From UHGV virus genome UHGV-0874476: a DNA stretch of 13,335 nt; one strand, written 5' to 3'. The notes below the pieces were generated by a model. It ran no database searches and had not been told where the DNA came from. It saw only the letters and a list, made by a program, of their open reading frames with translations. Numbering within the stretch: position 1 is the stretch's first letter; every line of letters starts with the position of its first letter. This document shows, piece by piece, positions 1 to 13,335 of the stretch. The translations under genes were made by a program, and so were the position numbers. This stretch comes from a virus.

Positions 1-32
1 AATCTAGAATCAATAAATACAGCAAACGGTTC

Positions 33-311
33 ATGGGCGTCGGAATGGATGAGACATTTGCCACAGAATTAGCTGGTCTGATCGGAGAGATTGCAGAGCC
101 GGACAAGTTCTTTTCTGCACTTGATAAATTCGTAAAAGCGACAGTTAAAAAAGCCGGTGAAGATTCCGTGGAGGCTCTTGTTAAGAGCAATCCAGGAATT
201 AAGGCCGGAAACGGAGACGGGGCTGGAGAGTCACTGGCAGTAAGAAAAGCCAAAGAGCTTTCTGGTGGTGCTAGAACAGTAAATCAAGATATTCTTAAAA
301 ATTATATGTAG
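33..311 (+). CDS. hypothetical protein, probably 5'-truncated by window edge (frame open back to position 3)
   Basis: 92-codon ORF with mixed, non-repetitive composition; no competing minus-strand ORF in 1-540; followed by AGGAGG RBS of the next plus-strand ORF. Confidence 0.45.
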   Translation: MGVGMDETFATELAGLIGEIAEPDKFFSALDKFVKATVKKAGEDSVEALVKSNPGIKAGNGDGAGESLAVRKAKELSGGARTVNQDILKNYM

Positions 312-323
312 GAGGAATGAATA

Positions 324-779
324 ATGGCAAGAGGAGATATGAGAATCGATACTCTGAAGGTTGGTGCAGAGGAAGAGATTCTTAATAGAAAAGAGTTCCA
401 AGCGGTAGCGAATACAGTAGATTTTACCGATGTTTCTGATCGTTATAGTCTTTCTCTGACTTTTTATTGTGCTCTGTTTTACGTCATTTCTCTTGACGTT
501 GCTCCGATTAACGTCTCTTCTCCAGACATATTTCTACTTCTAAACCTTATCTATGATTGGAGAATTGGATATCTGGTTTTGTGGGTCCGAAGATGTATTA
601 TTTGTTTCTGCACCAGTTTCCGCACTATTTTCATAGGCGTATTTCTGGTAGGCTTCAATTCCTTCCTTGCTATCGTTGTAAACCTGTTCAACATCGTCAA
701 ACGCATCGATATATCTGAGGGCATGTCTTCCATTGATTCCGTGAGACACAAGCGTTGCAAATGTATTTGCCTTGATTGA
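324..779 (+). CDS. hypothetical protein; last ~240 nt overlap the portal gene in antisense, so true 3' extent is uncertain
   Basis: ATG 324 preceded by taggagg at ~8 nt spacing; first ~45 aa look protein-like, remainder is Cys/Phe/Ile-rich as expected for antisense read-through. Confidence 0.3.
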   Translation: MARGDMRIDTLKVGAEEEILNRKEFQAVANTVDFTDVSDRYSLSLTFYCALFYVISLDVAPINVSSPDIFLLLNLIYDWRIGYLVLWVRRCIICFCTSFRTIFIGVFLVGFNSFLAIVVNLFNIVKRIDISEGMSSIDSVRHKRCKCICLD

Positions 780-2033
780 CATGTCCACCGATTTTTTTCT
801 AAGGAAACGAAACTCAATATCAGAAACATGAACTCTTCTTATTGGGCTGTCTGACGGAAGAACCCTTGATGGAATTGTTTTGATTGCCTTAAGTATAAGA
901 CTAATTTCCTTCCGCTTTCCCCTTTCCGTCATTTGCTGTTCTTGCAGAGCATCCAACTCCGCTGCGCTCCACCCGGAAGCCATGTCTGTTGCTGTTCCGG
1001 TGGATCCTCCACCAGAGCTCTCATACTGAATTGGAACATAGCAATCTTGGAGTATTGTAGCTCTCTGATTCTTTATGGCATCAAGAGTGCTGCTGCCATT
1101 GAAAGAACTTGACAATGGAGCGATCTTGGCAACCTTTCCGTCAGAGCTATACGTTAGAATCCAATCACCAGATTTGGGTTTTACAGGATTTCCTTTCTCA
1201 TCTTCTCTGAAATCAATGTTATCGCCCCACCAGAGCTCCTGCGTCCGTTGGCTAACATCATTTACGAAGTCAGATTCCAAAATATTCAGCGCATCAATTT
1301 CTTTGATTTTACGTTCAAAACATCCAGTCCTGTCAACCGACCGTTCATATTCTACGATCGGGATCTGACCTAAGATGTTCACCGTGTGGAATTTTATCTC
1401 TCCGGCTTCAATTTCAAAGCGTTCTGTATCCGTGAAACATGTGAAATAATTCTTTCCAGATCTTTTCACATACGATACTCCCATCATCTCACGCTGGCTA
1501 GGTCCATTGTGATACACTACAAAAGCGAATCTAGAGTCCAAAGTATAGATATTTACCAAAGATTCTGGAATTTCATTTACCGTTGCCGGAAATGTCTTTG
1601 GCTCAATCATTCTGTGTCCGATTCCACAAATTTCAAGGAATTCTGCCATTTGCTGATCTTTGAACGAAATATTTTCCCCGTTCTTAAGGATTTCATTCAA
1701 CCCAGAGATTCCAGAATCATCTATATCGGAATTGGTATTATGAATTTCTTTGTCTCCTCTTTGAACCAAAAGAATCGGACTTCCCCAGTTATATCCTTTT
1801 TTGAACTTCTTAATATAGTTCGGCAAACTTGAATTAACCCGAATATCTATATCGGCACGCACCGTCTTCTCCCTCTGTAGCGGCTGTTCTCCACGCTCAT
1901 AATCTATGAGGTATTGTATTTCCAATACATTCTGTCTATGCTTGGCATAGGCTTTTTGCAAAACTTCCACGATATTATTTTTATCTATGCTGTCAGCATC
2001 TGTATAAATCTTCTGCCTGCCAAGCAGACGCAT
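540..2033 (-). CDS. putative phage portal protein
   Basis: 497-aa ORF, ATG 2033 with GGTGGTGGG SD-like sequence; size and position downstream of terminase large subunit fit a portal; acidic C-terminus; family assignment from memory only. Confidence 0.7.
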   Translation of the reverse strand: MRLLGRQKIYTDADSIDKNNIVEVLQKAYAKHRQNVLEIQYLIDYERGEQPLQREKTVRADIDIRVNSSLPNYIKKFKKGYNWGSPILLVQRGDKEIHNTNSDIDDSGISGLNEILKNGENISFKDQQMAEFLEICGIGHRMIEPKTFPATVNEIPESLVNIYTLDSRFAFVVYHNGPSQREMMGVSYVKRSGKNYFTCFTDTERFEIEAGEIKFHTVNILGQIPIVEYERSVDRTGCFERKIKEIDALNILESDFVNDVSQRTQELWWGDNIDFREDEKGNPVKPKSGDWILTYSSDGKVAKIAPLSSSFNGSSTLDAIKNQRATILQDCYVPIQYESSGGGSTGTATDMASGWSAAELDALQEQQMTERGKRKEISLILKAIKTIPSRVLPSDSPIRRVHVSDIEFRFLRKKSVDMSIKANTFATLVSHGINGRHALRYIDAFDDVEQVYNDSKEGIEAYQKYAYENSAETGAETNNTSSDPQNQISNSPIIDKV

Positions 2034-2045
2034 ATTCCCACCACC

Positions 2046-2171
2046 TTATTTCCGTACTACATACCTTCCTCCAAAGGTTAAGCCAGATCCGCATTTTCTG
2101 TCCTTATATAATGTCGGAATATCAACCCAAACTTTATCTTTTTTAATTTCTTTTCTCTTTGTTTTCTCCAT
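2046..2171 (-). CDS. possible 41-aa basic mini-protein (MEKTKRKEIKKDKVWVDIPTLYKDRKCGSGLTFGGRYVVRK)
   Basis: ATG 2171 preceded by AGGAGAAGAT SD; lies between terminator hairpin and portal start; below ORF-track size cutoff, hand-translated. Confidence 0.2.
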   Translation of the reverse strand: MEKTKRKEIKKDKVWVDIPTLYKDRKCGSGLTFGGRYVVRK

Positions 2172-2180
2172 ATCTTCTCC

Positions 2181-2214
2181 TAAAAGAAAAAGCACCGAGA
2201 TTTCTCTCAGTGCT
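2181..2214 (-). terminator. Rho-independent terminator-like hairpin on minus strand
   Basis: minus-strand RNA AGCACUGAGA-GAAA-UCUCGGUGCU (10-bp stem with one G-U, GNRA loop) followed by UUUUUCUUUUU; the G-U is a C-A mismatch on the plus strand, so the structure is strand-specific. Confidence 0.55.
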
Positions 2215-2274
2215 CACTTTATTCTTTCACGATACTATTATATCTTAAATTAGCGCCCCCTAGGAACTCACTTT

Positions 2275-2682
2275 TTACCGTTTTTTGCTCAAAAGATAAA
2301 AGAAATACCGTCTTCGGTCAAGAAAAGAAGCTTCACTCATGGGGATTTTAGATATATCCCTAAGATACCAGAACGGTTGCTCATAACAGGCTGATTTGAT
2401 TATGTATTCCCACATTTCTGGAGATGCTTCTTTTGCAGTCTCTTCAATCATCTTAATTCTTTTTGAAACATTCGCCCTCTTAATTGCCAAGTCGCAAGTT
2501 TCATCATTGATATTGTTAGTCTGAGAATATACCATACCATCTATACACCGGCTTTTCGTTGTGGGCTCAAGTTCATTCAGTTCTTCCTTCCATTCTGGAT
2601 ACTGTTCGCAGAATCCGCATAGTTCCTTATATCTTTTGGCTGATATTCCATATTTTTGTAATGTTAATGTTCTTTTCTTCAA
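2275..2682 (-). CDS. hypothetical 135-aa protein between terminase and portal (TTG start)
   Basis: TTG start 2682 with AGGAGG SD 8 nt upstream that overlaps the terL stop codon (tight coupling); first ATG is only at codon 50; four Cys in N-terminal half, basic C-terminus. Confidence 0.6.
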   Translation of the reverse strand: MKKRTLTLQKYGISAKRYKELCGFCEQYPEWKEELNELEPTTKSRCIDGMVYSQTNNINDETCDLAIKRANVSKRIKMIEETAKEASPEMWEYIIKSACYEQPFWYLRDISKIPMSEASFLDRRRYFFYLLSKKR

Positions 2683-2694
2683 TTCTGATACCTC

Positions 2695-4407
2695 CTAATA
2701 AGGGCTTCTTACAATTCGAGATTCTTTTCGTCCAAGTGTATCTTGTACACATTCAGCTAACATACTAAGCGAATCTATTCCGTCATCATGTAGCACTTTT
2801 GCCTTTGTTGTATAAGTACAAACATTCCCCATGAATAATCCGTAATCAGATTTTGGTGTATAAAGACTCGGATCTAAAAACAGACAATGTTTCTTAATCC
2901 AGTCTGCATTAACCAATATTTTTGTTTCCTTATTTGCCGTTGTATATTTCGTTTCAATGCTTGTCCGGCACTTTCCTTTAACCATCTTTTCAATGTTATC
3001 TGCGATTCGTCCTCCGGCTTGGTTCGACTCAAATCTTACTTTATGCGGATTATGCTCAATGATTATGTCTGCTGTTTTCCTGTCCAAAGTGTCGTAATCC
3101 GTGTTATCGTCAAATACTACTGCTGGAATATAGAAATCTTCGCCAAACTGATAAGCAATGGGTAATGACTCAAAGTCTGTTCCCTTATCTTTGGTATCAC
3201 ACACGCCCCATATAGCATCTGGTTCTCTATCCGGAAAAATAGTAAATTGCATTTGTTTCTCTGGTACTTGATCTTTTGAAAAGAAAAATCTTCTCAGCTC
3301 AGATGCAGGGAGAAGCAATCCTTCTCTTTCGATCGGTTGCTGCTGATATAAACAGTTGAAAGAAATATCATCCATGGACTCTTTAGCATCCATAAAATAT
3401 TTCTTAGAAAACCCATTTACAGTAAACATGAAGTTACTTTCTCCGTTTTCATCTAAAGCCGGAATTGCTATGAATTTAGCTTTTGGATTCCCTTCGTAAA
3501 GTTGTTGTAGCTTACCTATTGGATCATGTACCGACCACCTAGTCGCTATATAAATTTCTTTACACCCCTCTAATCGTCTGGAACGTAAATCATTGACAAC
3601 CTTTGTCCAAAGGGTTTCTAATCGGTTTTTGTTCAATGCCTCTTCGATACCAGATACAAGGTCATCGGCTGTAAGAAATCTATTACATCGGGTAGCACCT
3701 GTAAGGGAACCGTCTATAGAGCGGAATGTCCATGTCTTAAATCGTCCATTTCTTTCAAGATTTACAGTTGTTTCTTTCGCATTGGTATTGGTAAGCTGTA
3801 CTGTCGGGAAAATCTCATGCCATGTATATTCCACCGGATCGTTAATGATTTCAAGCACACCATCATAAAGGGAACGTGTCAAAATGCTACTATGTGCTGA
3901 TGAAAGGTTGAAATCGTTCGGAAACCATCCGCCCACAAGCGAAAGAAAGAAATCTTCAAGTGTGGATTTTCCACATCCGGGCGGAACGCTCAGCCCAAAT
4001 ATATCCAATTCATCATCCATTAAATCTTGCAGGCTCTGTATAATTTGATGTTTTACGAACACTTCCCGTCTTGGTTCATAAAATCTTTCTTTTGGAAGTC
4101 GATTCTTCTCTAAATAAAGTAGCCCGCTGTCTACCTGATAGTTTTGGGCTTCCAATAGTAAATACTTCCAGTACAAATCATCAAATTCTCCGCTGCCGGT
4201 CTGAGCCGCCATATAAGCAGCCATCTCATGTGCATACTTGCTGATTTTCATGGCGTAGTCCCGGACTTCCTTATTTTCAGAGAAGTCAAAATCTTCTCTC
4301 ATATTCAGAAGCAAATCCAGGCAATCCCTCTGGTTAACTTTGTTCTTCAATCCGTCATTTATAATTTGTTGGAATAGTCCTTTGTACCATTCCATAGTTC
4401 CTTCCAT
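2695..4407 (-). CDS. terL: phage terminase large subunit
   Basis: 570-aa ORF; Walker A-like PPGCGKST; C-terminal nuclease-like segment ending LHDDGIDSLSMLAE typical of terminase RNase H-like domains; AGGAGG SD upstream of ATG 4407. Confidence 0.88.
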   Translation of the reverse strand: MEGTMEWYKGLFQQIINDGLKNKVNQRDCLDLLLNMREDFDFSENKEVRDYAMKISKYAHEMAAYMAAQTGSGEFDDLYWKYLLLEAQNYQVDSGLLYLEKNRLPKERFYEPRREVFVKHQIIQSLQDLMDDELDIFGLSVPPGCGKSTLEDFFLSLVGGWFPNDFNLSSAHSSILTRSLYDGVLEIINDPVEYTWHEIFPTVQLTNTNAKETTVNLERNGRFKTWTFRSIDGSLTGATRCNRFLTADDLVSGIEEALNKNRLETLWTKVVNDLRSRRLEGCKEIYIATRWSVHDPIGKLQQLYEGNPKAKFIAIPALDENGESNFMFTVNGFSKKYFMDAKESMDDISFNCLYQQQPIEREGLLLPASELRRFFFSKDQVPEKQMQFTIFPDREPDAIWGVCDTKDKGTDFESLPIAYQFGEDFYIPAVVFDDNTDYDTLDRKTADIIIEHNPHKVRFESNQAGGRIADNIEKMVKGKCRTSIETKYTTANKETKILVNADWIKKHCLFLDPSLYTPKSDYGLFMGNVCTYTTKAKVLHDDGIDSLSMLAECVQDTLGRKESRIVRSPY

Positions 4408-4446
4408 TGAAAAAGAGCCTCCTTCCCCTGTTTATTTAGGAAAGTC

Positions 4447-4468
4447 CGGCTCTTGATTTCGGCTCTTG
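4447..4468. repeat. tandem 9-bp direct repeat cggctcttg x2 (4-bp spacer) inside a weak inverted repeat, ~40 bp upstream of terL
   Basis: exact copies at 4447-4455 and 4460-4468 in the 67-bp lipoprotein-terL intergenic region. Confidence 0.5.
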
Positions 4469-4474
4469 CGACTT

Positions 4475-4837
4475 TTATCGTATTCTGATAATTTTTCTTT
4501 CTATTATTTCTCCATTTTTATATGTGTTTCGAATTTCTACAGAAATATTATCTCCTATTTTTGAGTTGTAAAATATTGGTGCACCAAATGCTCCTTTTGA
4601 CCATGAATTTTCTTCATAATGCAAATCATACGGCTCATAATAAACTTCGATATGCCACTCATACCTATGAGTAATAGCAAACCAGTGTCGCATATCCAAT
4701 TCTTGTATTTCTGCACTCACAATTTCATATTCGTATGTTAATTGTTGGTTGTTCTCAGAAACTTCTATTTCTCTTCCAGAACATCCAGTTAGGATCAATG
4801 TTAAAAATATACACAACATGATTTTCAAAAACTTCAT
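4475..4837 (-). CDS. small lipoprotein (120 aa)
   Basis: ATG 4837 preceded by GGGAGAAAA SD; N-terminus MKFLKIMLCIFLTLILTGCSG has hydrophobic signal plus lipobox L-T-G-C; the ORF-track start at 4945 lacks an RBS. Confidence 0.6.
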   Translation of the reverse strand: MKFLKIMLCIFLTLILTGCSGREIEVSENNQQLTYEYEIVSAEIQELDMRHWFAITHRYEWHIEVYYEPYDLHYEENSWSKGAFGAPIFYNSKIGDNISVEIRNTYKNGEIIERKIIRIR

Positions 4838-4875
4838 ATTTTCTCCCAACTTGTAAGAAATCCTTACAGGTTCAA

Positions 4876-5118
4876 TCATCTCACATATAATGTTCCATCT
4901 GCATTTAATCTTGGAGTAATCCCTTCCGACGTTGAAATATACCATACTCCAGTTTCTTCATCCCGAAAAGCATATACAAAGCACGAGCCAGAATTAAGTA
5001 AGATACTGTAATCTATAGCATATTCATATTCTTTACGATTTCCATTTTTACATCCAGTTAATCCAAAGGCCAAAATAACTACTACTGTAATAATCAATGG
5101 TAATTTCCAATTTTTCAT
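4876..5118 (-). CDS. small lipoprotein (80 aa)
   Basis: ATG 5118 preceded by GAGGAA SD; N-terminus MKNWKLPLIITVVVILAFGLTGCKNG has signal peptide plus lipobox. Confidence 0.6.
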   Translation of the reverse strand: MKNWKLPLIITVVVILAFGLTGCKNGNRKEYEYAIDYSILLNSGSCFVYAFRDEETGVWYISTSEGITPRLNADGTLYVR

Positions 5119-5121
5119 GTC

Positions 5122-5535
5122 CTATTCCTCAACTTTCTTCATTTCTGGTAATGGTTCATCACTCATTCTCAATGGTTCCCTAGAATCAACGCACCAATCA
5201 TTTTTATTTTCGCTGTCTTTCCATAACTGATGCCGAATTACTTGCCATATATCCTCTGCGATTAACTGTTCTTCTGACTTATCGTTCCTCTGTCCATCCC
5301 AAATAATTCGTCCGGCACATTCAAGGACTTTCCGAACCGCCTCACGTTCTGTAATATACCTCTCAAAAATTTTTTCGTGGTTCGGATTATTGGGCGAAAG
5401 GTCAATTCCTTTCATGACTAACGAATCCGCCAAATCTCCCCACTGGTTCATACGGATACGAAAGTATTCTTCCAGTGCTTCTTTGATTAAGATTGTTTGT
5501 TTTTCTGTAATTGTTAGCGTATATTTCTTTTCCAT
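5122..5535 (-). CDS. hypothetical protein (137 aa from ATG 5535)
   Basis: ATG 5535 preceded by GGAG at ~7 nt; upstream ATG 5550 has no RBS; 4-nt gap to upstream gene stop. Confidence 0.55.
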   Translation of the reverse strand: MEKKYTLTITEKQTILIKEALEEYFRIRMNQWGDLADSLVMKGIDLSPNNPNHEKIFERYITEREAVRKVLECAGRIIWDGQRNDKSEEQLIAEDIWQVIRHQLWKDSENKNDWCVDSREPLRMSDEPLPEMKKVEE

Positions 5536-5539
5536 ACCA

Positions 5540-5776
5540 TCACTCCACATTCACAATGAAACTCTGTCTGCACTTGCTTGCCTTACAAATATATGGCATC
5601 TTATGTATCTTCGTGTCTGGAAGAATCTTAATCAATTTCTTATGGCAAAAAGGACAGGTAACAAACTTCCCATCCTTGCATTCTTTTATTTCCGCTTCAC
5701 CATTCCATGTCGGAGCGTTCATGAACTCGTCAAAACTTCTCCCTGACATTTCCCGTATTACTTCTGTCATACTCAT
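5540..5776 (-). CDS. hypothetical small Cys-rich protein (78 aa, CPFC...C..C)
   Basis: ATG 5776 overlaps stop of upstream gene (ATGA coupling); zinc-ribbon-like Cys spacing. Confidence 0.55.
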   Translation of the reverse strand: MSMTEVIREMSGRSFDEFMNAPTWNGEAEIKECKDGKFVTCPFCHKKLIKILPDTKIHKMPYICKASKCRQSFIVNVE

Positions 5777-6060
5777 TCCTGTTCCTCTGGATTCTTAAAA
5801 ATTACTGTCACACCTGTTTCCCTCTCACACACTTCTACCATTTCATCTATATTCCCACTAAAGTCCTCCCAAATCTTTTGGGATTCCACAAATGCCCTAT
5901 TGATTCTCTCGTATCCAAATCCATAGGTACGGTGAAGCGCAATTGCCATGGCTGCATAAATTTGCGGGACCATCTGATCTGCGGCCTTTCCGATATTTTC
6001 TGCCTGTTTTTGTTTTGCTAATGCATTAATCGAATTTATCAGCCTATTGTTTTTCCCCAT
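5773..6060 (-). CDS. hypothetical protein (95 aa)
   Basis: ATG 6060 preceded by AAAGGGAGG SD; member of coupled operon. Confidence 0.6.
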   Translation of the reverse strand: MGKNNRLINSINALAKQKQAENIGKAADQMVPQIYAAMAIALHRTYGFGYERINRAFVESQKIWEDFSGNIDEMVEVCERETGVTVIFKNPEEQE

Positions 6061-6235
6061 AGAATTGCCTCCCTTTATTCAGCCGTTTTTCTTCGTGACC
6101 AAACTGACATTTTATCATATCAGTAATATGTGACCGTTCTTGCCGGATTCCATGTCCTTGCCGAAACAACTCGCATTGAAGAATCTCTCCACAATACTGA
6201 CATTCGTCCTTGATTTCTTTACCTGCTATTTTCAA
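6044..6235 (-). CDS. hypothetical small Cys-rich protein (63 aa, TTG start)
   Basis: TTG 6235 preceded by GGAGAAAAGAC; CQYCGEILQC motif; overlaps neighbours by 17 nt at each end. Confidence 0.35.
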   Translation of the reverse strand: MKIAGKEIKDECQYCGEILQCELFRQGHGIRQERSHITDMIKCQFGHEEKRLNKGRQFYGEKQ

Positions 6236-6416
6236 GTCTTTTCTCCAAATTCTCTGCTATTCTGAAACACTTTTTTCTGTTCCAGCACCGAATGTTATTC
6301 ACATATCTATTTGGTTCGTCAAAAGAGGAACAGTTTATTTTCTCCACTTCTGGCGCAAAGTCCTGGCAATAAGAACAGAAGTCTTGAAGTAATAAATTGA
6401 ATCCATTAACATTCAT
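6219..6416 (-). CDS. hypothetical small Cys-rich protein (65 aa)
   Basis: ATG 6416 preceded by GAGGAGGAAG SD; ATGA overlap with upstream stop. Confidence 0.5.
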   Translation of the reverse strand: MNVNGFNLLLQDFCSYCQDFAPEVEKINCSSFDEPNRYVNNIRCWNRKKCFRIAENLEKRLENSR

Positions 6417-6631
6417 TTAATCTTCCTCCTCATAGGAATCCCGTGCATTTTTCGCCAGTTATTACAGCACATACGATTTGATTCTCCAATGCAAATTTGA
6501 AAATATGTTACTTGAACAATCCCATGCGTTCTAGTCGCCATATCCTTTGCTTCTTTTCGTCTTCCCCAAACTCTCCCACACGAATGCTCTGGATATTTTA
6601 GATATGACCAATCGACTTTATTCATATTCAC
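6413..6631 (-). CDS. hypothetical small protein (72 aa; GTG start at 6631 or ATG at 6625)
   Basis: GTGA start/stop overlap with upstream gene; weak SD; Cys/His-containing. Confidence 0.4.
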   Translation of the reverse strand: MNMNKVDWSYLKYPEHSCGRVWGRRKEAKDMATRTHGIVQVTYFQICIGESNRMCCNNWRKMHGIPMRRKIK

Positions 6632-6852
6632 TCAACCTTTCTAAACCCGATAAAGTCCGAAAATCCGAAAGAACCGTCTTTGCAATTATGTACATCATGT
6701 CTATGCAACCCAATACCACAGCCTTTCGGATAGAAAAATTCTTTATTTGTAATTCCTACTATGCTTTGAAATGCTATGTTCTCTCCTATACCTACTGTGC
6801 TATATTTTTCTCCGCACATCCGGCATTTGTAGATTGCTCTGTATTCTGACAT
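6628..6852 (-). CDS. hypothetical small Cys-rich protein (74 aa, CRMCGEK...C..HxxxC)
   Basis: ATG 6852 preceded by GGGAGGAG SD at 5 nt; ORF-track start 6867 is TTG without RBS. Confidence 0.55.
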   Translation of the reverse strand: MSEYRAIYKCRMCGEKYSTVGIGENIAFQSIVGITNKEFFYPKGCGIGLHRHDVHNCKDGSFGFSDFIGFRKVE

Positions 6853-6854
6853 AA

Positions 6855-7079
6855 TTACTCCTCCCAATTCTTCAAAAACTCCTGTACGTATTCATAGTTC
6901 CAACCACCGGAACCATTGATGTCCGTATCATCTTTCAAAAGATTCCATGCCTCTTCTTTGGTTTCAGCATATCCGATAAGATAATCGGAATCTCCGCACT
7001 CTTCACAATAAGTCTGCTCGTAATCTAATATTTCATCAGATACAAACAGACCGCCCATGTGTGATTGATATATGTACAT
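6855..7079 (-). CDS. hypothetical acidic small protein (74 aa, CEECGD motif)
   Basis: ATG 7079 overlaps upstream stop (TAATG coupling). Confidence 0.55.
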   Translation of the reverse strand: MYIYQSHMGGLFVSDEILDYEQTYCEECGDSDYLIGYAETKEEAWNLLKDDTDINGSGGWNYEYVQEFLKNWEE

Positions 7080-7372
7080 TACTGTCCCACCCCAAAATGT
7101 TTCCGCAGCATTGCCAATTCATCGACTGCTTTCAGAAATGCTGTCCGCATATCGGTATACCGAATACAATCCTGCTGGTGCTGGTCTTGAAGGTCTTTGC
7201 AAATTCTTTCCAACTCTGCAATTCTGTACTTTTCTTCTTTTTCCACTTTCTTAATTTCAACAGATTCATAAACATCTTCTAGTTTTGATCTAAGAACTGC
7301 GTTTTCGTCAATAAGGTTTCTGATTTGTTCAATCATTTCCTGCTTTGTCATTTCTCTTACACAATCGCACAT
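7079..7372 (-). CDS. hypothetical coiled-coil protein (97 aa)
   Basis: ATG 7372 preceded by GAGG at 9 nt; heptad-like charged/hydrophobic pattern; first gene after the tRNA island. Confidence 0.6.
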   Translation of the reverse strand: MCDCVREMTKQEMIEQIRNLIDENAVLRSKLEDVYESVEIKKVEKEEKYRIAELERICKDLQDQHQQDCIRYTDMRTAFLKAVDELAMLRKHFGVGQ

Positions 7373-7400
7373 ATTTTTTACCTCACAAAATTATTTGAAA

Positions 7401-7426
7401 TGCGCGGGTGTGGATTTGCACCACAC
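7401..7426 (-). other. tRNA 3'-half-like remnant (T-arm-like hairpin GUGUGG-UGCAAAU-CCACAC plus CCCGCGCA tail); no matching 5' acceptor strand found
   Basis: plus-strand gtgtggatttgcaccacac; no complementary acceptor within 100 nt upstream on minus strand. Confidence 0.3.
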
Positions 7427-7557
7427 ATGATTTTCATTCCTACAAGTGTCCTCCGAATTATACATTCCCGACCACTATAAAATCTTATGTTTAAGCGTTT
7501 ACCTGTTCCGCCACCGCACATCACGCATTGATTACCGGCTCAATACGCAAAGCCTAA

Positions 7558-7671
7558 TTGCGACAGGTGGATTTGAACCACCGCTTATACCAACGCCAGA
7601 CCTTCCCAGATTTCAATGGTAGCTAGTCATATACTTTCTGTTGGGTGTGAGGATTTGAACCTCTGTCGCAA
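7558..7671 (-). other. composite tRNA-like structured element: 9-bp terminal inverted repeat enclosing two T-arm-like hairpins with identical UUCAAAU loops
   Basis: minus strand UUGCGACAG...CUGUCGCAA (perfect 9-bp complement); hairpins GAGG-UUCAAAU-CCUC and GGUGG-UUCAAAU-CCACC; neither hairpin has a canonical tRNA body around it. Confidence 0.35.
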
Positions 7672-7722
7672 ACCACGAAAGCTTTCTTCACAACAACAAC
7701 CGGATAAAATCATTGCTGTGCA

Positions 7723-7799
7723 TTGCCCTGAGTGGATTCGAACCACCGACAGCACGCCAGTTCATGTGTACGCTGCTCTACCAACTGAGCTACAGGGCA
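7723..7799 (-). tRNA. tRNA-like gene with canonical acceptor, D-arm and T-arm but non-canonical anticodon arm; identity undetermined, possibly pseudo-tRNA
   Basis: minus strand UGCCCUG-UA-GCUC-AGUUGGUA-GAGC ... GGUGG-UUCGAAU-CCACU-CAGGGCA-A; the 26 nt between D-arm and T-arm cannot form a 5-bp stem with 7-nt loop. Confidence 0.45.
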
Positions 7800-7912
7800 A
7801 ACCTTTTGATTTCGTAAACCGCCTATAATCCTCGGAAATCGTCAGAACTCCATGACGTTCCTTACCTCCAAACTAGGTTTTTAAAGCGCTTTATGGCTTT
7901 TACTTCCGCTTT

Positions 7913-7970
7913 GACATATGGATTGCTCGTCAGCAAATTACGCTCCGGATACCAGAGATCACCATATGTC
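7913..7970 (-). other. 58-nt three-way-junction structured element immediately 3' of tRNA-Thr
   Basis: minus strand GACAUAUGG...CCAUAUGUC (9-bp closing stem) enclosing hairpins CUCUGG-UAU-CCGGAG (one G-U) and UUGCU-GACG-AGCAA. Confidence 0.35.
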
Positions 7971-7972
7971 AG

Positions 7973-8044
7973 AGCCAGAAACCGGACTCGAACCGACAAT
8001 ATCAGCATTACAAGTACTGCGTTCTACCATTGAACTATTCTGGC
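7973..8044 (-). tRNA. tRNA-Thr (anticodon UGU)
   Basis: hand-folded cloverleaf: acceptor GCCAGAA/UUCUGGC, U8 A9, D-stem GUUC/GAAC, anticodon stem CAGUA/UGCUG, loop CUUGUAA, T-arm GUCGG-UUCGAGU-CCGGU, 72 nt. Confidence 0.88.
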
Positions 8045-8296
8045 TACTTAATAAACACCAGTAAACGCTATGCGAAAACCGGATTCCTTTTCTGAACCTG
8101 TCAGATAGGTAAAATATTCCCTTATAAAACCACTTGTCCAACTTATTTACCATACAGGTGTGGCACTAATAATTTACTTCCAGGAATCTTCCAGAATTAC
8201 CGACTACTGCTAATCACGGTCTATGGTCTTATCTCTCTGGAGAAGTTTTTTGCAAGGTTCTTCAGCAGGTATAAGTTGCCTTGCTATATGGAAAAG

Positions 8297-8369
8297 TACA
8301 GGGAGTAGGAGTCGAACCCACAATCGCTGGATATAAGCCAGGTGCAACGTACCGCATCACCTTCCCTGC
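8297..8369 (-). tRNA. probable tRNA, anticodon tentatively UAU (Ile, decoding AUA); atypical A8, weak D-stem, G1-U72
   Basis: acceptor GCAGGGA/UCCCUGU, anticodon stem CUGG/CCAG with loop CUUAUAU, T-arm GUGGG-UUCGACU-CCUAC, 73 nt. Confidence 0.5.
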
Positions 8370-8533
8370 AAAACGGCATTTCTGCCGTTAGCAACATGTT
8401 TTTCGTGCTATGCCTAAGCGCTAGGAAATATTTTCTATTTCCAAAACCTCCCGGCACTTGTGACGCACCTTTAATCAGCTCTCCGCTAGGAGGTTCTAGT
8501 ATAAAGGAGGTCTATCAAAAAAATGATAACAAA

Positions 8534-8605
8534 CGGGGATTGTAGGATTCGAACCTACGTATGCAAGAGTCAAAATCTTGTGTGTTTCCTCTTCACCAAA
8601 TCCCT
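8534..8605 (-). tRNA. tRNA-Gln (anticodon UUG)
   Basis: hand-folded cloverleaf: acceptor AGGGAUU/AAUCCCC (A1-C72 mismatch), 3-bp D-stem, anticodon stem CAAGA/UCUUG, loop UUUUGAC, T-arm GUAGG-UUCGAAU-CCUAC, discriminator G, 72 nt. Confidence 0.88.
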
Positions 8606-9098
8606 ATACTACGTTGCGATAAAAAGTACGATTCATAATATTTATAATTGTTGTTTTTGAAACCCCATAAACTTCCGCGATTCTCCTAGTTGATGTTTTC
8701 CCTTTTTGTTCTCTTATAAAACGAACATCTTTTTCCGTAAGTTTTCTGTTATTATATAATTCATTTTTTTTGCTTTCTTCAATCAAATGATATTTTGTAT
8801 TTTCCTTTGGTGTTACCCACTCTAAATTATCAACATAAGGATTTTTCTTATTTTCGTCTTTATGATGCACTATTTTCTTATTGTCATGATTCGGAATAAA
8901 CGTTTCAGCAACCGCCTTGTGAACTCTAATTCCTTTCACTGCTCCTCTTTTTCCAAGCGGTATATACACCATTAAGTAACCAGCCTTATTAACATTAAAT
9001 TTGTATATACGATTTGTCTTTAAATTTTTAATATTTCCATTTGTATCAATAACAAAATCCGCATATTCAATTCCCCCATATACCATAGTTTTAAACAT
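8604..9098 (-). CDS. HNH homing endonuclease-like protein (N-terminal NUMOD4-like segment, HNH_3-like core, C-terminal helix-turn-helix)
   Basis: motifs GIEYADFVIDTNGNIKNL and HHKDENKKNPYVDNLEWVTPKENTKYH; ATG 9098 preceded by AAAGGAG; stop codon overlaps first nucleotides of tRNA-Gln; ORF-track start 9173 is TTG without RBS. Confidence 0.75.
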   Translation of the reverse strand: MFKTMVYGGIEYADFVIDTNGNIKNLKTNRIYKFNVNKAGYLMVYIPLGKRGAVKGIRVHKAVAETFIPNHDNKKIVHHKDENKKNPYVDNLEWVTPKENTKYHLIEESKKNELYNNRKLTEKDVRFIREQKGKTSTRRIAEVYGVSKTTIINIMNRTFYRNVV

Positions 9099-9213
9099 AA
9101 TGCCACATTCTCCTTTACTGCGGATATTCCCAGTTTTATTCTCCGAATACCCCATTGTGCTTTTTCTTTGCAACCATTCTCTTCTGAACTCATAGCCTGA
9201 CAGGGCAAAATTT

Positions 9214-9378
9214 CTAATACCACATGCAAAACATATTCATCACAAAAAGTACATGGAGTATCCAGAAACCAAGCATTGATTCTTTTCCATTTCTGTGATA
9301 GGTCTCCCACATATAATAAATAAAAATTGCCATCATAATGACGTCGAAAGTAGTTGTCACGATTTTTAATGCATACAT
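9214..9378 (-). CDS. possible 54-aa membrane mini-protein (two hydrophobic segments)
   Basis: ATG 9378 preceded by GGAG ~11 nt upstream; sequence MYALKIVTTTFDVIMMAIFIYYMWETYHRNGKESMLGFWILHVLFVMNMFCMWY. Confidence 0.4.
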   Translation of the reverse strand: MYALKIVTTTFDVIMMAIFIYYMWETYHRNGKESMLGFWILHVLFVMNMFCMWY

Positions 9379-9382
9379 CTTA

Positions 9383-9520
9383 TTATTCAGCTCCTTTTTT
9401 ATAGCACTTAATTCCAAAATCAATAATTTTAACAATCGCCAAGAATCCAACTAACGCAAAATATAATGTAGGTGCTTCGATTATCTTTCCAATCCACCAT
9501 AATAATGCTAATATAATCAT
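9383..9520 (-). CDS. possible 45-aa single-pass membrane mini-protein
   Basis: ATG 9520 directly follows stop of upstream gene (TAAATG); MIILALLWWIGKIIEAPTLYFALVGFLAIVKIIDFGIKCYKKGAE; below ORF-track cutoff, hand-translated. Confidence 0.35.
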   Translation of the reverse strand: MIILALLWWIGKIIEAPTLYFALVGFLAIVKIIDFGIKCYKKGAE

Positions 9521-9706
9521 TTACTTCTCTTCTCCAATCAAATAGTCCAGAATCTTTCTAGCGACCTCTTCCTCTGGCTCAAACGGCAATCCGCAGCACC
9601 AATGTTCCTTCAATGCGCTGGCAATGCTGGCAGAAAATCCGTTATACAGGAAATCGTGCTTCAGAAGTTCATTCCTCAAAATGGTTATTGCCTTCTTAGT
9701 CTGCAT
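9521..9706 (-). CDS. hypothetical small protein (61 aa)
   Basis: ATG 9706; 11-nt overlap with upstream gene; weak SD. Confidence 0.45.
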   Translation of the reverse strand: MQTKKAITILRNELLKHDFLYNGFSASIASALKEHWCCGLPFEPEEEVARKILDYLIGEEK

Positions 9707-10274
9707 TTTCGTGTTCGCCTGTAATCAGTTCATGATATGGCAATGTTTCAATCCATTTACAGAAATCACGCCATTCTGGAAGGCGATGATTCTTTCTCTG
9801 TGCGTATATGGTTTTTAACTGCTGATAGTTTGTTGTAATTCCGGCAGTAAGAATTGTTCCTGTCGGGCAATTATAAAGTAGAGCCAGGTAATCTTCCGGT
9901 TCTTTGGTCGCATTGTAAACTGCTTTAAGCCGGTTCATTTCATTTTTAGTGTTATCTGTAACATACCTGCAGAAGCATTCATCATAATTCATTGAACTAA
10001 GTCTGTGCATTGTAGACTGGGAAGACACGATGTCGAACCAATGATATCGCTCAGCTTCTGTCCAGGCTTTAACTGTAAACGATAAATCAAACTGAACTAC
10101 TATCCCCTTTAAGAAATTATCATGCCCACTGCCTTTTTCAGCAGTTCCAAGCTTCTTTACTGTTTTAGTATAGTCTGCACTGCACTTATCAGAATCTACC
10201 GACATCGGGAATTTTGAAACCCTGAAGCTATTTTCTAAGCCGTAAACGCTGACATTGCTAACAATATTCTTCAT
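9696..10274 (-). CDS. hypothetical protein (192 aa); weak, unverified resemblance to ThyX-type flavin-dependent thymidylate synthase fold without the RHR motif
   Basis: ATG 10274 preceded by GGAGAGG SD; segment GSGHDNFLKGIVVQFDLSFTVKAWTEAERYH recalls the ThyX HGHxxxFEHxxxTF...W..RHR region, but the RHR signature is replaced. Confidence 0.6.
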   Translation of the reverse strand: MKNIVSNVSVYGLENSFRVSKFPMSVDSDKCSADYTKTVKKLGTAEKGSGHDNFLKGIVVQFDLSFTVKAWTEAERYHWFDIVSSQSTMHRLSSMNYDECFCRYVTDNTKNEMNRLKAVYNATKEPEDYLALLYNCPTGTILTAGITTNYQQLKTIYAQRKNHRLPEWRDFCKWIETLPYHELITGEHENAD

Positions 10275-10596
10275 TCTTAAACCTCTCCATTTCGTTCACA
10301 CTCATTCCGACAATACCAGCGCTCTCCGAACTATCTGTCGCCCGAAAATGTGCTTTCGGATGCTGAGGATACATATACTCAAACATGGCATAGTTTGCAA
10401 TATCACAAAGATAATCCCCATTTCCAGTTTCTTTGTATTTCTGCAAGCATTTTTCCAATGTTGGAATAGCATGTACATTTCCTCTGCCGAAATTCTGTGC
10501 CGCCGGGCCATATTTGTAGTAGCTTACCTCAACACGATTCCGGCGAAGCTCATCGAACCTGGTACTGTATTCTTTTGACATATCCAGTTTACTCAT
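10258..10596 (-). CDS. hypothetical protein (112 aa from ATG 10596)
   Basis: ATG 10596 preceded by GAGGAG at 7 nt; ORF-track start 10641 lacks RBS. Confidence 0.55.
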   Translation of the reverse strand: MSKLDMSKEYSTRFDELRRNRVEVSYYKYGPAAQNFGRGNVHAIPTLEKCLQKYKETGNGDYLCDIANYAMFEYMYPQHPKAHFRATDSSESAGIVGMSVNEMERFKNEEYC

Positions 10597-10678
10597 TTTC
10601 TTTCTCCTCAAATAATCTGCACTCCTGGCAGTAACCATCATATGCTACATCGGCACACATTTCGGAATCGCCATTAAA

Positions 10679-10897
10679 TCAAATCCATGTGAAATCGTCT
10701 CTCCACTTACAAGAACCCTGGATAAAATCTTCTAATCGCTGTTTTGTTTCCAGTTTCCTTTTCCTGTTTTTATGAATCCGATTCCCATGACACCAACTAC
10801 AGCTGCCATGATTCCGGCAGGTTGCGTCAATGGCTTTTGCACCACGGTACGGCTTGCGGTGTTCTTTTCTGAATTGGATGGATTTATCTAGGCTCAT
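10679..10897 (-). CDS. hypothetical basic Cys/His-rich small protein (start uncertain)
   Basis: motif ATCRNHGSCSWCHGNRIH; N-terminal part of the ORF-track call overlaps the upstream gene, so internal ATG 10897 was chosen. Confidence 0.4.
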   Translation of the reverse strand: MSLDKSIQFRKEHRKPYRGAKAIDATCRNHGSCSWCHGNRIHKNRKRKLETKQRLEDFIQGSCKWRDDFTWI

Positions 10898-11114
10898 CTG
10901 ACAGTTTTCCCCCGCAGAATGGGCAATAATTAATTTCTTTCTCTGCGATTGTTTCATCATCAATCTGTGCCATTAATTTATTTCCCTCTATCATTAAATA
11001 CCCCGTCATCTTTGTTCCGAAAATCATATGACTGTTTCCAGTGATGATTTTTCCATCTTCGCAACAATATTTGCACATAAAATTAGCCCTCCATTTCTGA
11101 AAACGCATATTCAC
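10884..11114 (-). CDS. hypothetical zinc-ribbon-like small protein (CKYCC ... CPFCGG)
   Basis: GTG 11114 or ATG 11108 start; paired CxxC motifs at both ends. Confidence 0.4.
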   Translation of the reverse strand: MNMRFQKWRANFMCKYCCEDGKIITGNSHMIFGTKMTGYLMIEGNKLMAQIDDETIAEKEINYCPFCGGKLSDEPR

Positions 11115-11421
11115 TCATTACATTATCAACAAATCGAATATTACACGGTTCAACCTCATGCACCGTACCGTCCTCATATTCCACAATCGCAAAGGTGGAA
11201 GAAAACTGTCCTGCCGAATGACCGCCACGCAAATATGATTCTCCTACAATCTCTGAACGATGTGGCCAACAATGGAATAATGCCTTAACATCTTTTTCTG
11301 GCTCAACTACTTCCCGATAAACACTGAGGTCTTGTCTCCTTTTTCTCGTAACTACCGGAATATGTACAATACATGGTCTGTAATCAATACCAATTGTGTT
11401 TTTTCTGTCCACTGCTGCCAT
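11083..11421 (-). CDS. hypothetical protein (112 aa from ATG 11421)
   Basis: ATG 11421 preceded by AGGAG at 5 nt; ORF-track start 11436 overlaps upstream stop but has no SD. Confidence 0.55.
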   Translation of the reverse strand: MAAVDRKNTIGIDYRPCIVHIPVVTRKRRQDLSVYREVVEPEKDVKALFHCWPHRSEIVGESYLRGGHSAGQFSSTFAIVEYEDGTVHEVEPCNIRFVDNVMSEYAFSEMEG

Positions 11422-11432
11422 ATAAGCTCCTA

Positions 11433-11696
11433 TCATAAATATCTAAATGGTGTTGCGATAATATCCAATATTTGAAATGGCAAAAGTAAAATAAATTCTA
11501 AAAACAATTTACCCAGATATTTCCAATCAGATTTTTTCAGCTTATCGTGGTGTTTACATATTCTGTGTGCTACCCATAGCACCTCGCCCCACCATTCAAT
11601 ATACATTTGGTTAAACCAATGGCCTTTTATGCTAAATGTTTTATTGCAATCCTTACAATGAAATTCGTGTTTCGTAATCATATCTGCACCAATCAT
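11433..11696 (-). CDS. hypothetical protein with N-terminal CxxC and hydrophobic C-terminus (87 aa)
   Basis: ATG 11696 after a 100-bp AT-rich intergenic region; no clear SD. Confidence 0.45.
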   Translation of the reverse strand: MIGADMITKHEFHCKDCNKTFSIKGHWFNQMYIEWWGEVLWVAHRICKHHDKLKKSDWKYLGKLFLEFILLLPFQILDIIATPFRYL

Positions 11697-11796
11697 AAAT
11701 TGTCTTTTTTACTTGTTTTTAAAAATTTTTTGAATTGGAATTTATGAGCGAATTGCTCTCTTTTGTGAATTATGGGCTTCAGCCCTCTTTTGTAGA

Positions 11797-12111
11797 TTAT
11801 CTTGAATATTTCTCTCGAAATGCTTTTCTCTCTTTTGTTTGATTTATTGCTTCATTTAAAATTTTTTCCTGTTCATCTAAGTTTCCATCACAACAGGAGT
11901 AAGAAACTTTTCCATCTTTTGAAATAACAATCTTATTCTTCAAATCATACAGTTCCTTGTTTCGTTTATACTCTTGGTACATAATGATGTATTTTGATAG
12001 TTTTAAAAATCCGTCTAACAATTCTAAAATCCACCACATTACTGTTAAAATTATAACTGTCAAGCCGATTATAACCAACAAATCAAATAATGTGTTTTTT
12101 ATTAGTTCCAT
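11797..12111 (-). CDS. hypothetical membrane-anchored protein (104 aa from ATG 12111)
   Basis: ATG 12111 preceded by GAGG at 6 nt; N-terminal hydrophobic helix LFDLLVIIGLTVIILTVMWWILELL. Confidence 0.55.
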   Translation of the reverse strand: MELIKNTLFDLLVIIGLTVIILTVMWWILELLDGFLKLSKYIIMYQEYKRNKELYDLKNKIVISKDGKVSYSCCDGNLDEQEKILNEAINQTKERKAFREKYSR

Positions 12112-12185
12112 TTCAAACCTCAATAGAAAATATTTTGATTGCTGTCATGTAAAACTCCTTTTTGTTTTTTGAGAAAAAATTTGGA

Positions 12186-12539
12186 TCACTTCTTTTCAAA
12201 ATAAAATTTTACCGGAGCATCATTTTCTTTTACAATTCCGAAGTTCTTCGCAAGACGATAAATGAAATTCTTTTCTAATCTTTCATGCAAAGTCTGTAAT
12301 CTTTCCCGAAATTTTTCAATCGTATAAGTCGATTTGTAAAAATTACACATTCTACAAGCCGGATTGTAGTTTTCAATATCATTCGCTCCATTATGCCAGT
12401 AAAGAGGATTGATGTGATCTACCTGCATGTCCTTGTATTCCAGTTCACAACCGCAATAGGCACAATGTCCAGAATATTTGTTATATACCTGAATCCGTAT
12501 TGGTTTTGGAATTGGTTTTCGTTTTTTCTGTTCTTGCAT
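12186..12539 (-). CDS. HNH endonuclease (117 aa)
   Basis: classic HNH motif CAYCG...DHINP...N...CRMCN; ATG 12539 preceded by GGAG at 6 nt, 1 nt after upstream stop. Confidence 0.8.
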   Translation of the reverse strand: MQEQKKRKPIPKPIRIQVYNKYSGHCAYCGCELEYKDMQVDHINPLYWHNGANDIENYNPACRMCNFYKSTYTIEKFRERLQTLHERLEKNFIYRLAKNFGIVKENDAPVKFYFEKK

Positions 12540-12540
12540 A

Positions 12541-12834
12541 TTAATCTCCACTGATGTAAATGAAATCCGCATTTCTAAAACTCACATTCGGAAACATGTT
12601 TACAGCCACATTACACAAGGCAATAAACAAATCGCCTCTGTCATCTACAGTCTTAACTTTTCCATTTGTACCCTTGCAAACTATATTCTGCCCAGAAGCG
12701 TCTTTGGTTATAAAATAATCTGATTCATCGTTTAAGATAAAATCCATCGAAAGTGTTTTGCAAAGAATCCGAAATGCTTCTTCTGGTTCTATGTCAATAT
12801 TAAATGTTTGTTTTGATGTAACGTCAACTAACAT
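12541..12834 (-). CDS. hypothetical protein (97 aa); shares an identical 18-aa / 55-nt segment with the upstream gene
   Basis: ATG 12834 preceded by GAGGAA at 5 nt; C-terminal RGDLFIALCNVAVNMFPN encoded by repeat copy 12585-12639. Confidence 0.55.
   Translation of the reverse strand: MLVDVTSKQTFNIDIEPEEAFRILCKTLSMDFILNDESDYFITKDASGQNIVCKGTNGKVKTVDDRGDLFIALCNVAVNMFPNVSFRNADFIYISGD
12585..12639. repeat. direct repeat copy 1 (55 bp, identical to 13281-13335)
   Basis: cattcggaaacatgtttacagccacattacacaaggcaataaacaaatcgcctct; flanks diverge on the left. Confidence 0.9.
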
Positions 12835-12843
12835 GTTGGTTCC

Positions 12844-13335
12844 TCATTTCGCTTCTGTCATATCATCTACCAGTTTGACCGTATTCTTCATGGCTGTTTC
12901 CAGAATCTCTGGCGTAATTTCTAGTCCTCTGATTTCTCCGCTTCTGGTTTTCCCAGCGCATACACAATCCACAATCATTTCAATCACATCCAACAGGTTT
13001 ACATCTTCCGGACATCTGGAAAGCAAGTGATGCCTTTCGGTATTAGCATGATACTGATACCATTTCCCAGATACAAAATCTATTCCGCCAGCCATAGTTT
13101 CAAGAAAGTCATCGTAGAGCATCTTTTCTTCTGTTTTCTTCGTCCAATCATGTTTCTCTCCGTTTTCACAGAACATAGTTCCAATCTCATCCATTACTGC
13201 CCTTACATCTGCAATATGGCTGTCGTTTGCTTCCTGAAATTGCTTAAAGTTAATTCCTTTCGGAGCTGTTCTTGTGTCTCCATTCGGAAACATGTTTACA
13301 GCCACATTACACAAGGCAATAAACAAATCGCCTCT
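12844..13335 (-). CDS. hypothetical protein, 5'-truncated by window edge (at least 160 aa)
   Basis: frame is open to window end; ORF-track M at 13326 is a TTG inside the repeat; stop TGA at 12844-12846 sits in the SD of the next gene. Confidence 0.6.
   Translation of the reverse strand, partial: RGDLFIALCNVAVNMFPNGDTRTAPKGINFKQFQEANDSHIADVRAVMDEIGTMFCENGEKHDWTKKTEEKMLYDDFLETMAGGIDFVSGKWYQYHANTERHHLLSRCPEDVNLLDVIEMIVDCVCAGKTRSGEIRGLEITPEILETAMKNTVKLVDDMTEAK
13281..13335. repeat. direct repeat copy 2 (at least 55 bp, truncated by window end)
   Basis: exact match to 12585-12639 at offset 696 bp. Confidence 0.9.

Follow-up and report, generated by a model that had tools for sequence, protein, structure and literature searches.

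The window analyzed here, a stretch of 13,335 nt from the virus genome UHGV-0874476, ends in a 55-nt segment that is also present further inside it, and both copies lie in reading frames of neighboring genes. This raises the question of whether the repeat is a module shared by two genes, a real duplication, or a product of DNA handling and assembly. The exact direct repeat occupies positions 12585-12639 and 13281-13335, with a spacing of 696 nt, and is the only repeated canonical 55-mer of the whole window, which contains no repeated 56-mers; the recurrence of an exact 55-mer within 13 kb is far beyond chance. The final base of the second copy is the last base of the window. The left flanks of the copies differ at once (A at 12584, C at 13280), and the layout on the plus strand can be written as X - R - Y - R, where R is the 55-mer and R and Y together take up 696 nt. 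The left end of the window has no 55-nt self-overlap. Both copies code on the minus strand, in frame, for RGDLFIALCNVAVNMFPN. The initial annotation had reported two copies with 100% identity, diverging left flanks and an in-frame peptide, and all three observations were reproduced, the last one by translation. The features at this end of the window are the following:

12186-12572, minus strand: HNH endonuclease gene, Pfam HNH (PF01844) with 37.1 bits against a cutoff of 21.4 bits, phrog_2118 with E = 2.8e-40
12541-12834, minus strand: gene A, encoding a complete 97-aa protein; the exact protein is found on 18 public contigs
12585-12639, minus strand: native 55-nt copy, gene A codons 66-83 (plus 1 nt); identical in ten of ten related loci
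12844-13280, minus strand: main part of the DUF5662 gene (native codons 11-155) with the stop codon; identical to the 155-aa genes of loci L001-L009
13281-13284, minus strand: microhomology AATG (CATT on the plus strand), common to gene A (CCGAATG/TGAG) and the native DUF5662 gene (CCAAATG/GAGA)
13281-13335, minus strand: terminal, non-native 55-nt copy, where the contig re-enters gene A sequence and ends exactly 55 nt past the junction

In gene A, the repeated peptide forms residues 66-83 and is followed by a tail of 14 aa; the protein has a weak, sub-threshold resemblance to the Pfam family DUF4314 at residues 51-72. The upstream reading frame (13335-12844, a partial ORF of 163 aa) is open-ended, as it runs off the window end: the peptide is followed there by 145 aa. 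The tail length given for the downstream gene by the initial annotation was correct, but the 140 aa given for the upstream gene has to be replaced by this count. The open-ended ORF matches Pfam PF18907 (DUF5662) at residues 32-146 with 28.8 bits (cutoff 27), and precomputed PF18907 matches are present on nearly all of its homologs. The first 10 native codons of the DUF5662 gene and its upstream region are absent from the window. For the HNH gene, gene callers use the ATG at 12539 as the start (117 aa), directly after the stop codon of gene A (12541-12543), and the 117-aa call is also made in related loci; this explains why the 128-aa form was not on record in an exact look-up.

Searches for the functions of gene A and DUF5662 gave no PHROGs match, nothing significant in NCBIfam and nothing in a profile search of the PDB. 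The AlphaFold model of the DUF5662 protein is of mediocre quality (pLDDT 65.8) and all-helical, and Foldseek found no PDB structure matching it with E < 1. Several residues are invariant in the family, namely H32, H54-D55, H88, R93-H94-H95, D108 and D115 (numbering of P0001). Together with the predicted helical fold they are reminiscent of a metal-binding hydrolase, and an HD-phosphohydrolase-like activity may be guessed from the conserved histidines and aspartates.

Ten related loci (L001-L010) were retrieved with the exact gene A protein from the 18 public contigs. One of them, L001, differs from the window by a single mismatch in the 9574 nt of positions 3714-13287 (99.99% identity), and past 13287 it continues into the native start of the DUF5662 gene. 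A complete 155-aa DUF5662 gene lies upstream of an identical gene A in eight of the ten loci, where it has its own ribosome-binding site and is preceded by approximately 270 nt of intergenic DNA; in L010 a scaffold gap interrupts the gene but the native start is still present, and the sequence of L005 stops within the gene. In all eight loci reaching past the junction, the match to the window ceases at 13281-13287 (the alignments end at 13287), and the step leading into the repeated 55-mer is a non-native adjacency by comparison with these eight. No alternative form of the junction was found among the nine of ten related loci that cover the DUF5662 start, all of which have the native arrangement. 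In the relatives covering this region the native N-terminus reads MKIVIHKNPNGDTRT, MKIVIHKNPNGD. Thus, the proposal of the initial annotation that two genes share a module by recent duplication or swapping did not hold: in the relatives the DUF5662 gene starts with the unrelated, family-conserved MKIVIHKNPNGD, and an unrelated N-terminus of the upstream gene is just what that annotation had listed as evidence against its own proposal.

The same picture emerged from a broader search. The 163-aa open ORF retrieved 781 homologs; the best 120 of these 781 are 154-184 aa long (nearly all 155-161 aa), with query coverage not exceeding 94-95%, and RGDLFIALCNVAVNMFPN is present in none of the 781. Aligned representatives have the common N-terminus MK[IV]x[IV]HKNPNGDTRTAPK, and in the alignments of representative homologs KNPNGDTRTAPK is invariant or nearly so. 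The N-terminal MK..HKNPNGDTRTAPK conserved in the family is missing from the ORF of the window. Few homologs are longer, and these carry unrelated N-terminal extensions rather than gene A sequence. In an exact look-up among approximately 15 billion proteins, the 228-aa fusion, the 163-aa partial form and the 149-aa form starting with methionine were all absent, while the restored 155-aa DUF5662 protein (the ten native residues joined to the allele of the window itself) is identical to P0121, encoded on the 16,766-nt contig that supplied L001. The native N-terminus in the relatives and the absence of the fusion forms show that RGDLFIALCNVAVNMFPN is a native part of gene A but not of DUF5662.

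Scans of DNA collections contributed little. The 32-nt junction sequence had no matches in viral_contigs, metagenome_contigs and genome_contigs, and a control 29-mer shared by the native and chimeric forms had none either; the latter result indicates that the three collections do not contain this phage, so the junction scans are uninformative. The control 29-mer, taken from the DUF5662 gene, is conserved in five aligned related loci and absent from the three collections. In assemblies from Logan and ENA the phage is nevertheless frequent (18-22 contigs for each protein). Among GenBank phages only weak matches to parts of the region were found, with 66-68% identity, in Clostridium and Clostridioides phages.

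At the nucleotide level, the crossover can be located precisely. The relatives read ATACATAAAAACCCAAATG followed by GAGACACA, which encodes MKIVIHKNPN/GDTRT (alignment with L001; the slash marks the crossover), the window reads AACATGTTTCCGAATG followed by GAGACACA, and gene A reads CCGAATG/TGAGTTT. The two parent sequences have only AATG in common at the crossover. The junction connects codon 83 of gene A with codon 11 of the DUF5662 gene, in frame and in the same orientation, and the window retains only NGDTRTAPK of the DUF5662 N-terminus, with gene A sequence in place of MKIVIHKNP. The joined points are 696 nt apart, and the topology is head-to-tail, the downstream point being connected to the upstream one.

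A second abnormal junction was found at the opposite end of the window, where the following piece is inverted:

1-440, plus strand: C-terminal portion of the scaffolding gene, plus the next gene up to approximately codon 39

Positions 1-440 of the window correspond to L012 11965-12404 (plus), and positions 433-12033 correspond to L012 11601-1 (minus); compared with all ten loci L011-L020, the piece has the opposite orientation to the remainder of the window, and the junction at 433-440 is absent from all ten relatives compared. The join is a fold-back at an imperfect microhomology, TTTCTG[A/C]T at 433-440 (6-8 nt), with points approximately 800 nt apart and approximately 363 nt of the reference left out. 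It creates a spurious ORF of 151 aa (324-779, plus strand), which is not on record in the exact look-up, and it cuts the gene following the scaffolding gene, so that a viable genome of this form is unlikely. A real inversion was considered for this end and is unlikely as well, since it would break both the scaffolding gene and the next gene, and only one boundary is seen. The independent Logan contig L021, from another run (SRR30237475), begins within the scaffolding gene, 1 nt away from the first position of the window, and continues natively; the window start is thus a place where contigs break recurrently as well. Among ten relatives, no strain SNP that could cause this break was found immediately beyond the window start. 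A near-palindrome, AGCTCCAGGAGCT, is located approximately 10-25 nt outside the window start. Short microhomology and closely spaced joined points are thus common to both junctions of the window (696 nt on the right, approximately 800 nt on the left).

The explanation that best accounts for these observations is a chimeric junction together with a loop of the assembly graph. Neighboring segments of a de Bruijn graph overlap by k nucleotides, and a path that leads back to an already used node closes a loop, at which the contig normally ends. The window would then probably be a whole contig from a de Bruijn graph assembly with k=55, running from gene A into the DUF5662 gene. At AATG the contig would take a non-native junction back into gene A, meet its own, already used 55-mer, close a loop of 696 bp and stop, with exactly one k-mer (55 nt) duplicated. 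The junction would most likely derive from chimeric DNA that formed in vitro, e.g. through template switching of the polymerase during amplification, and the contig would carry two chimeric junctions, one near each end. The coincidence of the window end with the contig end, the value of 55 for k and the formation of the junctions in vitro are inferences. We estimate the probability that the repeat originated in vitro or during assembly (chimeric DNA or reads together with an assembly-graph loop) at approximately 0.7. The assembly artifact, which the initial annotation had mentioned as a fallback, is thus the favored explanation, but as a junction with a loop and not as a collapse.

The length and the position of the repeat agree with this explanation. 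The default graph overlap of metaSPAdes is 55 bp (PMC12133742), and a repeat of exactly this length at the last base of the window supports the reading as a loop at a contig end. As with terminal k-mer overlaps of the SPAdes type, the exact repeat equals the default k, one copy lies at the very end, and no 56-mer is repeated. In circular SPAdes contigs, however, both ends share exactly k nucleotides, whereas the partner copy in the window is internal (at 12585), which gives a tail with a loop of 696 bp; unlike a SPAdes circle, this loop needs a non-native junction to close.

The junctions themselves can be compared with the chimeras formed by phi29 during multiple displacement amplification (MDA), 85% of which are inverted with an intervening deletion (PMC1855051, Lasken and Stockwell 2007); microhomology or complementarity is found in more than 90% of those whose joined points are separated by less than 10 kb (PMC1855051). 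Both junctions of the window resemble these chimeras in joining points less than 1 kb apart at microhomologies of 4 nt and 6-8 nt, and the left one, being inverted at a microhomology and skipping a part of the reference, matches the dominant class. Fold-back chimeras like the left one are characteristic of artifacts from MDA or hairpins. The right junction does not fit as well. It is in direct orientation, and for points less than 10 kb apart this is a rare class, comprising 11 of 475 chimeras (PMC1855051), which counts against an origin in vitro. Its in-frame position would also be expected of a real, selected fusion, and counts against a chimera too, although one join in three would be in frame by chance. 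A further point on that side comes from graph cleaning: chimeric edges usually have low coverage, and assemblers tend to prune them.

The rarity of direct-orientation chimeras keeps alive the explanation that a real tandem duplication of 696 bp, formed by illegitimate recombination between gene A and the DUF5662 gene at AATG, was present in a part of the phage population of the sample. The order of genes would then be DUF5662, a 228-aa fusion of gene A residues 1-83 with DUF5662 residues 11-155, gene A and HNH, and a short-read assembler unable to resolve the 696-bp unit would stop one k-mer into the second copy. The topology of the junction (exactly head-to-tail, in the same orientation, with a 4-nt microhomology and an in-frame fusion) is that of microhomology-mediated tandem duplications in phages and bacteria, and the survival of the junction edge through graph cleaning would suggest non-trivial read support. 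A second full copy of the unit, doubled depth and recurrence in other samples, which would complete the resemblance, are unobserved. Against this explanation, the junction is absent from all related contigs examined and the fusion protein from public protein collections, and the arrangement is normal in L001, a nearly identical genome with a single mismatch in 9.6 kb. In addition, the same contig contains the other aberrant junction, which would disrupt head genes if it were real; two such junctions at opposite ends point to a problem of the library or the assembly rather than to two independent structural variants. We consider the duplication possible but unlikely.

An explanation by a true shared module of at least 55 bp, which gene A would have in common with some other, unseen gene upstream and which would serve as a point of recombination, cassette exchange or phase variation, is extremely improbable. 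The exact repeat read in frame in two ORFs agrees with it, and this identity of a segment in two nearby reading frames is also the full extent of the similarity to phase-variable and cassette loci such as invertible segments, shufflons and silent cassettes. But the ORF upstream represents a regular DUF5662 gene, with a known and conserved native N-terminus, the repeat is direct and single, and the window has no inverted repeat pairs of 20 nt or longer. No cassette array or variable cassettes were found in the window, no recombinase, adjacent or otherwise, was found among the subset of its ORFs that was scanned, and the relatives examined have no alternative forms; the neighbors of the repeat are HNH, DUF5662 and small unknown proteins. 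The cassette or phase-variation point suggested by the initial annotation is thus unsupported on each of these counts, and the 55-nt repeat is in all likelihood not a native shared module. It could also be supposed that the window boundary is arbitrary and the length of 55 nt a coincidence, the original contig running on into a longer duplicated or palindromic stretch. The absence of a k-mer self-overlap at the left end would be compatible with that, yet a cut placed by chance exactly 55 nt past the junction has a probability of about one in several hundred, 55 is the default k of metaSPAdes (PMC12133742), and the left end lies within 1 nt of the end of the independent contig L021. This makes an arbitrary boundary quite improbable.

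With regard to genomic context, the window derives from a temperate tailed phage or prophage found frequently in metagenome assemblies. Its other landmarks are:

540-2033: portal gene
2695-4407: large terminase gene
7722-8606, minus strand: four tRNA genes in a stretch of approximately 1.2 kb without protein genes

Two HNH endonuclease genes are present in the early region, at 8604-9173 and 12186-12572 (HNH_3 and HNH, respectively). In the relatives, an integrase gene lies approximately 5 kb further upstream of the locus with the repeat, and a repressor-like gene is also found upstream. Several relatives are located at the ends of contigs of 175-295 kb, which is consistent with integrated prophages.

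Some features of this phage group vary between its members. The tRNA cluster of the window comprises Thr-UGU, Ile-UAU, Gln-UUG and a fourth gene at 7722-7800, whose anticodon arm has 18 nt compared to 13 nt in the Rfam model and for which ARAGORN gives the 4-base anticodon 'gaac'; this tRNA could be unusual or degenerate, or could contain a small insertion. Many relatives (L002, L003, L011, L015, L016, L018, L020) have, directly ahead of the terminase gene, a gene for an RtcB RNA ligase of 397-411 aa, and some also encode a 189-aa protein with a faint match to an RNA ligase (RLIG1), while the window (approximately 4475-5550) and L012 have small genes of 137, 80 and 134 aa where many relatives have RtcB. 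The RtcB region together with the phage tRNA cluster looks like a variable module for tRNA repair or counter-defense. The HNH content differs among the relatives too, with proteins of 164 aa or 426 aa (the 426-aa gene being present in L002 and L003). Between lineages, the region at approximately 8300-11700 has only 74-87% identity or cannot be aligned, and it is a mosaic hot spot.

In summary, the repeat most likely is a contig-end artifact, or at most a private tandem duplication, and its biological reading is unsupported. As the window has abnormal junctions at both ends, the ORFs extending across them are unreliable, namely the open-ended DUF5662 ORF and the 151-aa ORF at 324-779. More generally, caution is advised when a repeat is as long as the assembler's k and reaches the end of a contig; such a repeat should not be taken for a biological feature. 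A real duplication would amount to a minor structural variant at the strain level, with an in-frame 228-aa fusion of gene A and DUF5662 beside intact copies of both genes. In that case it would capture the birth of a new gene by duplication and fusion in the early region of a phage, within a sub-population of a gut prophage.
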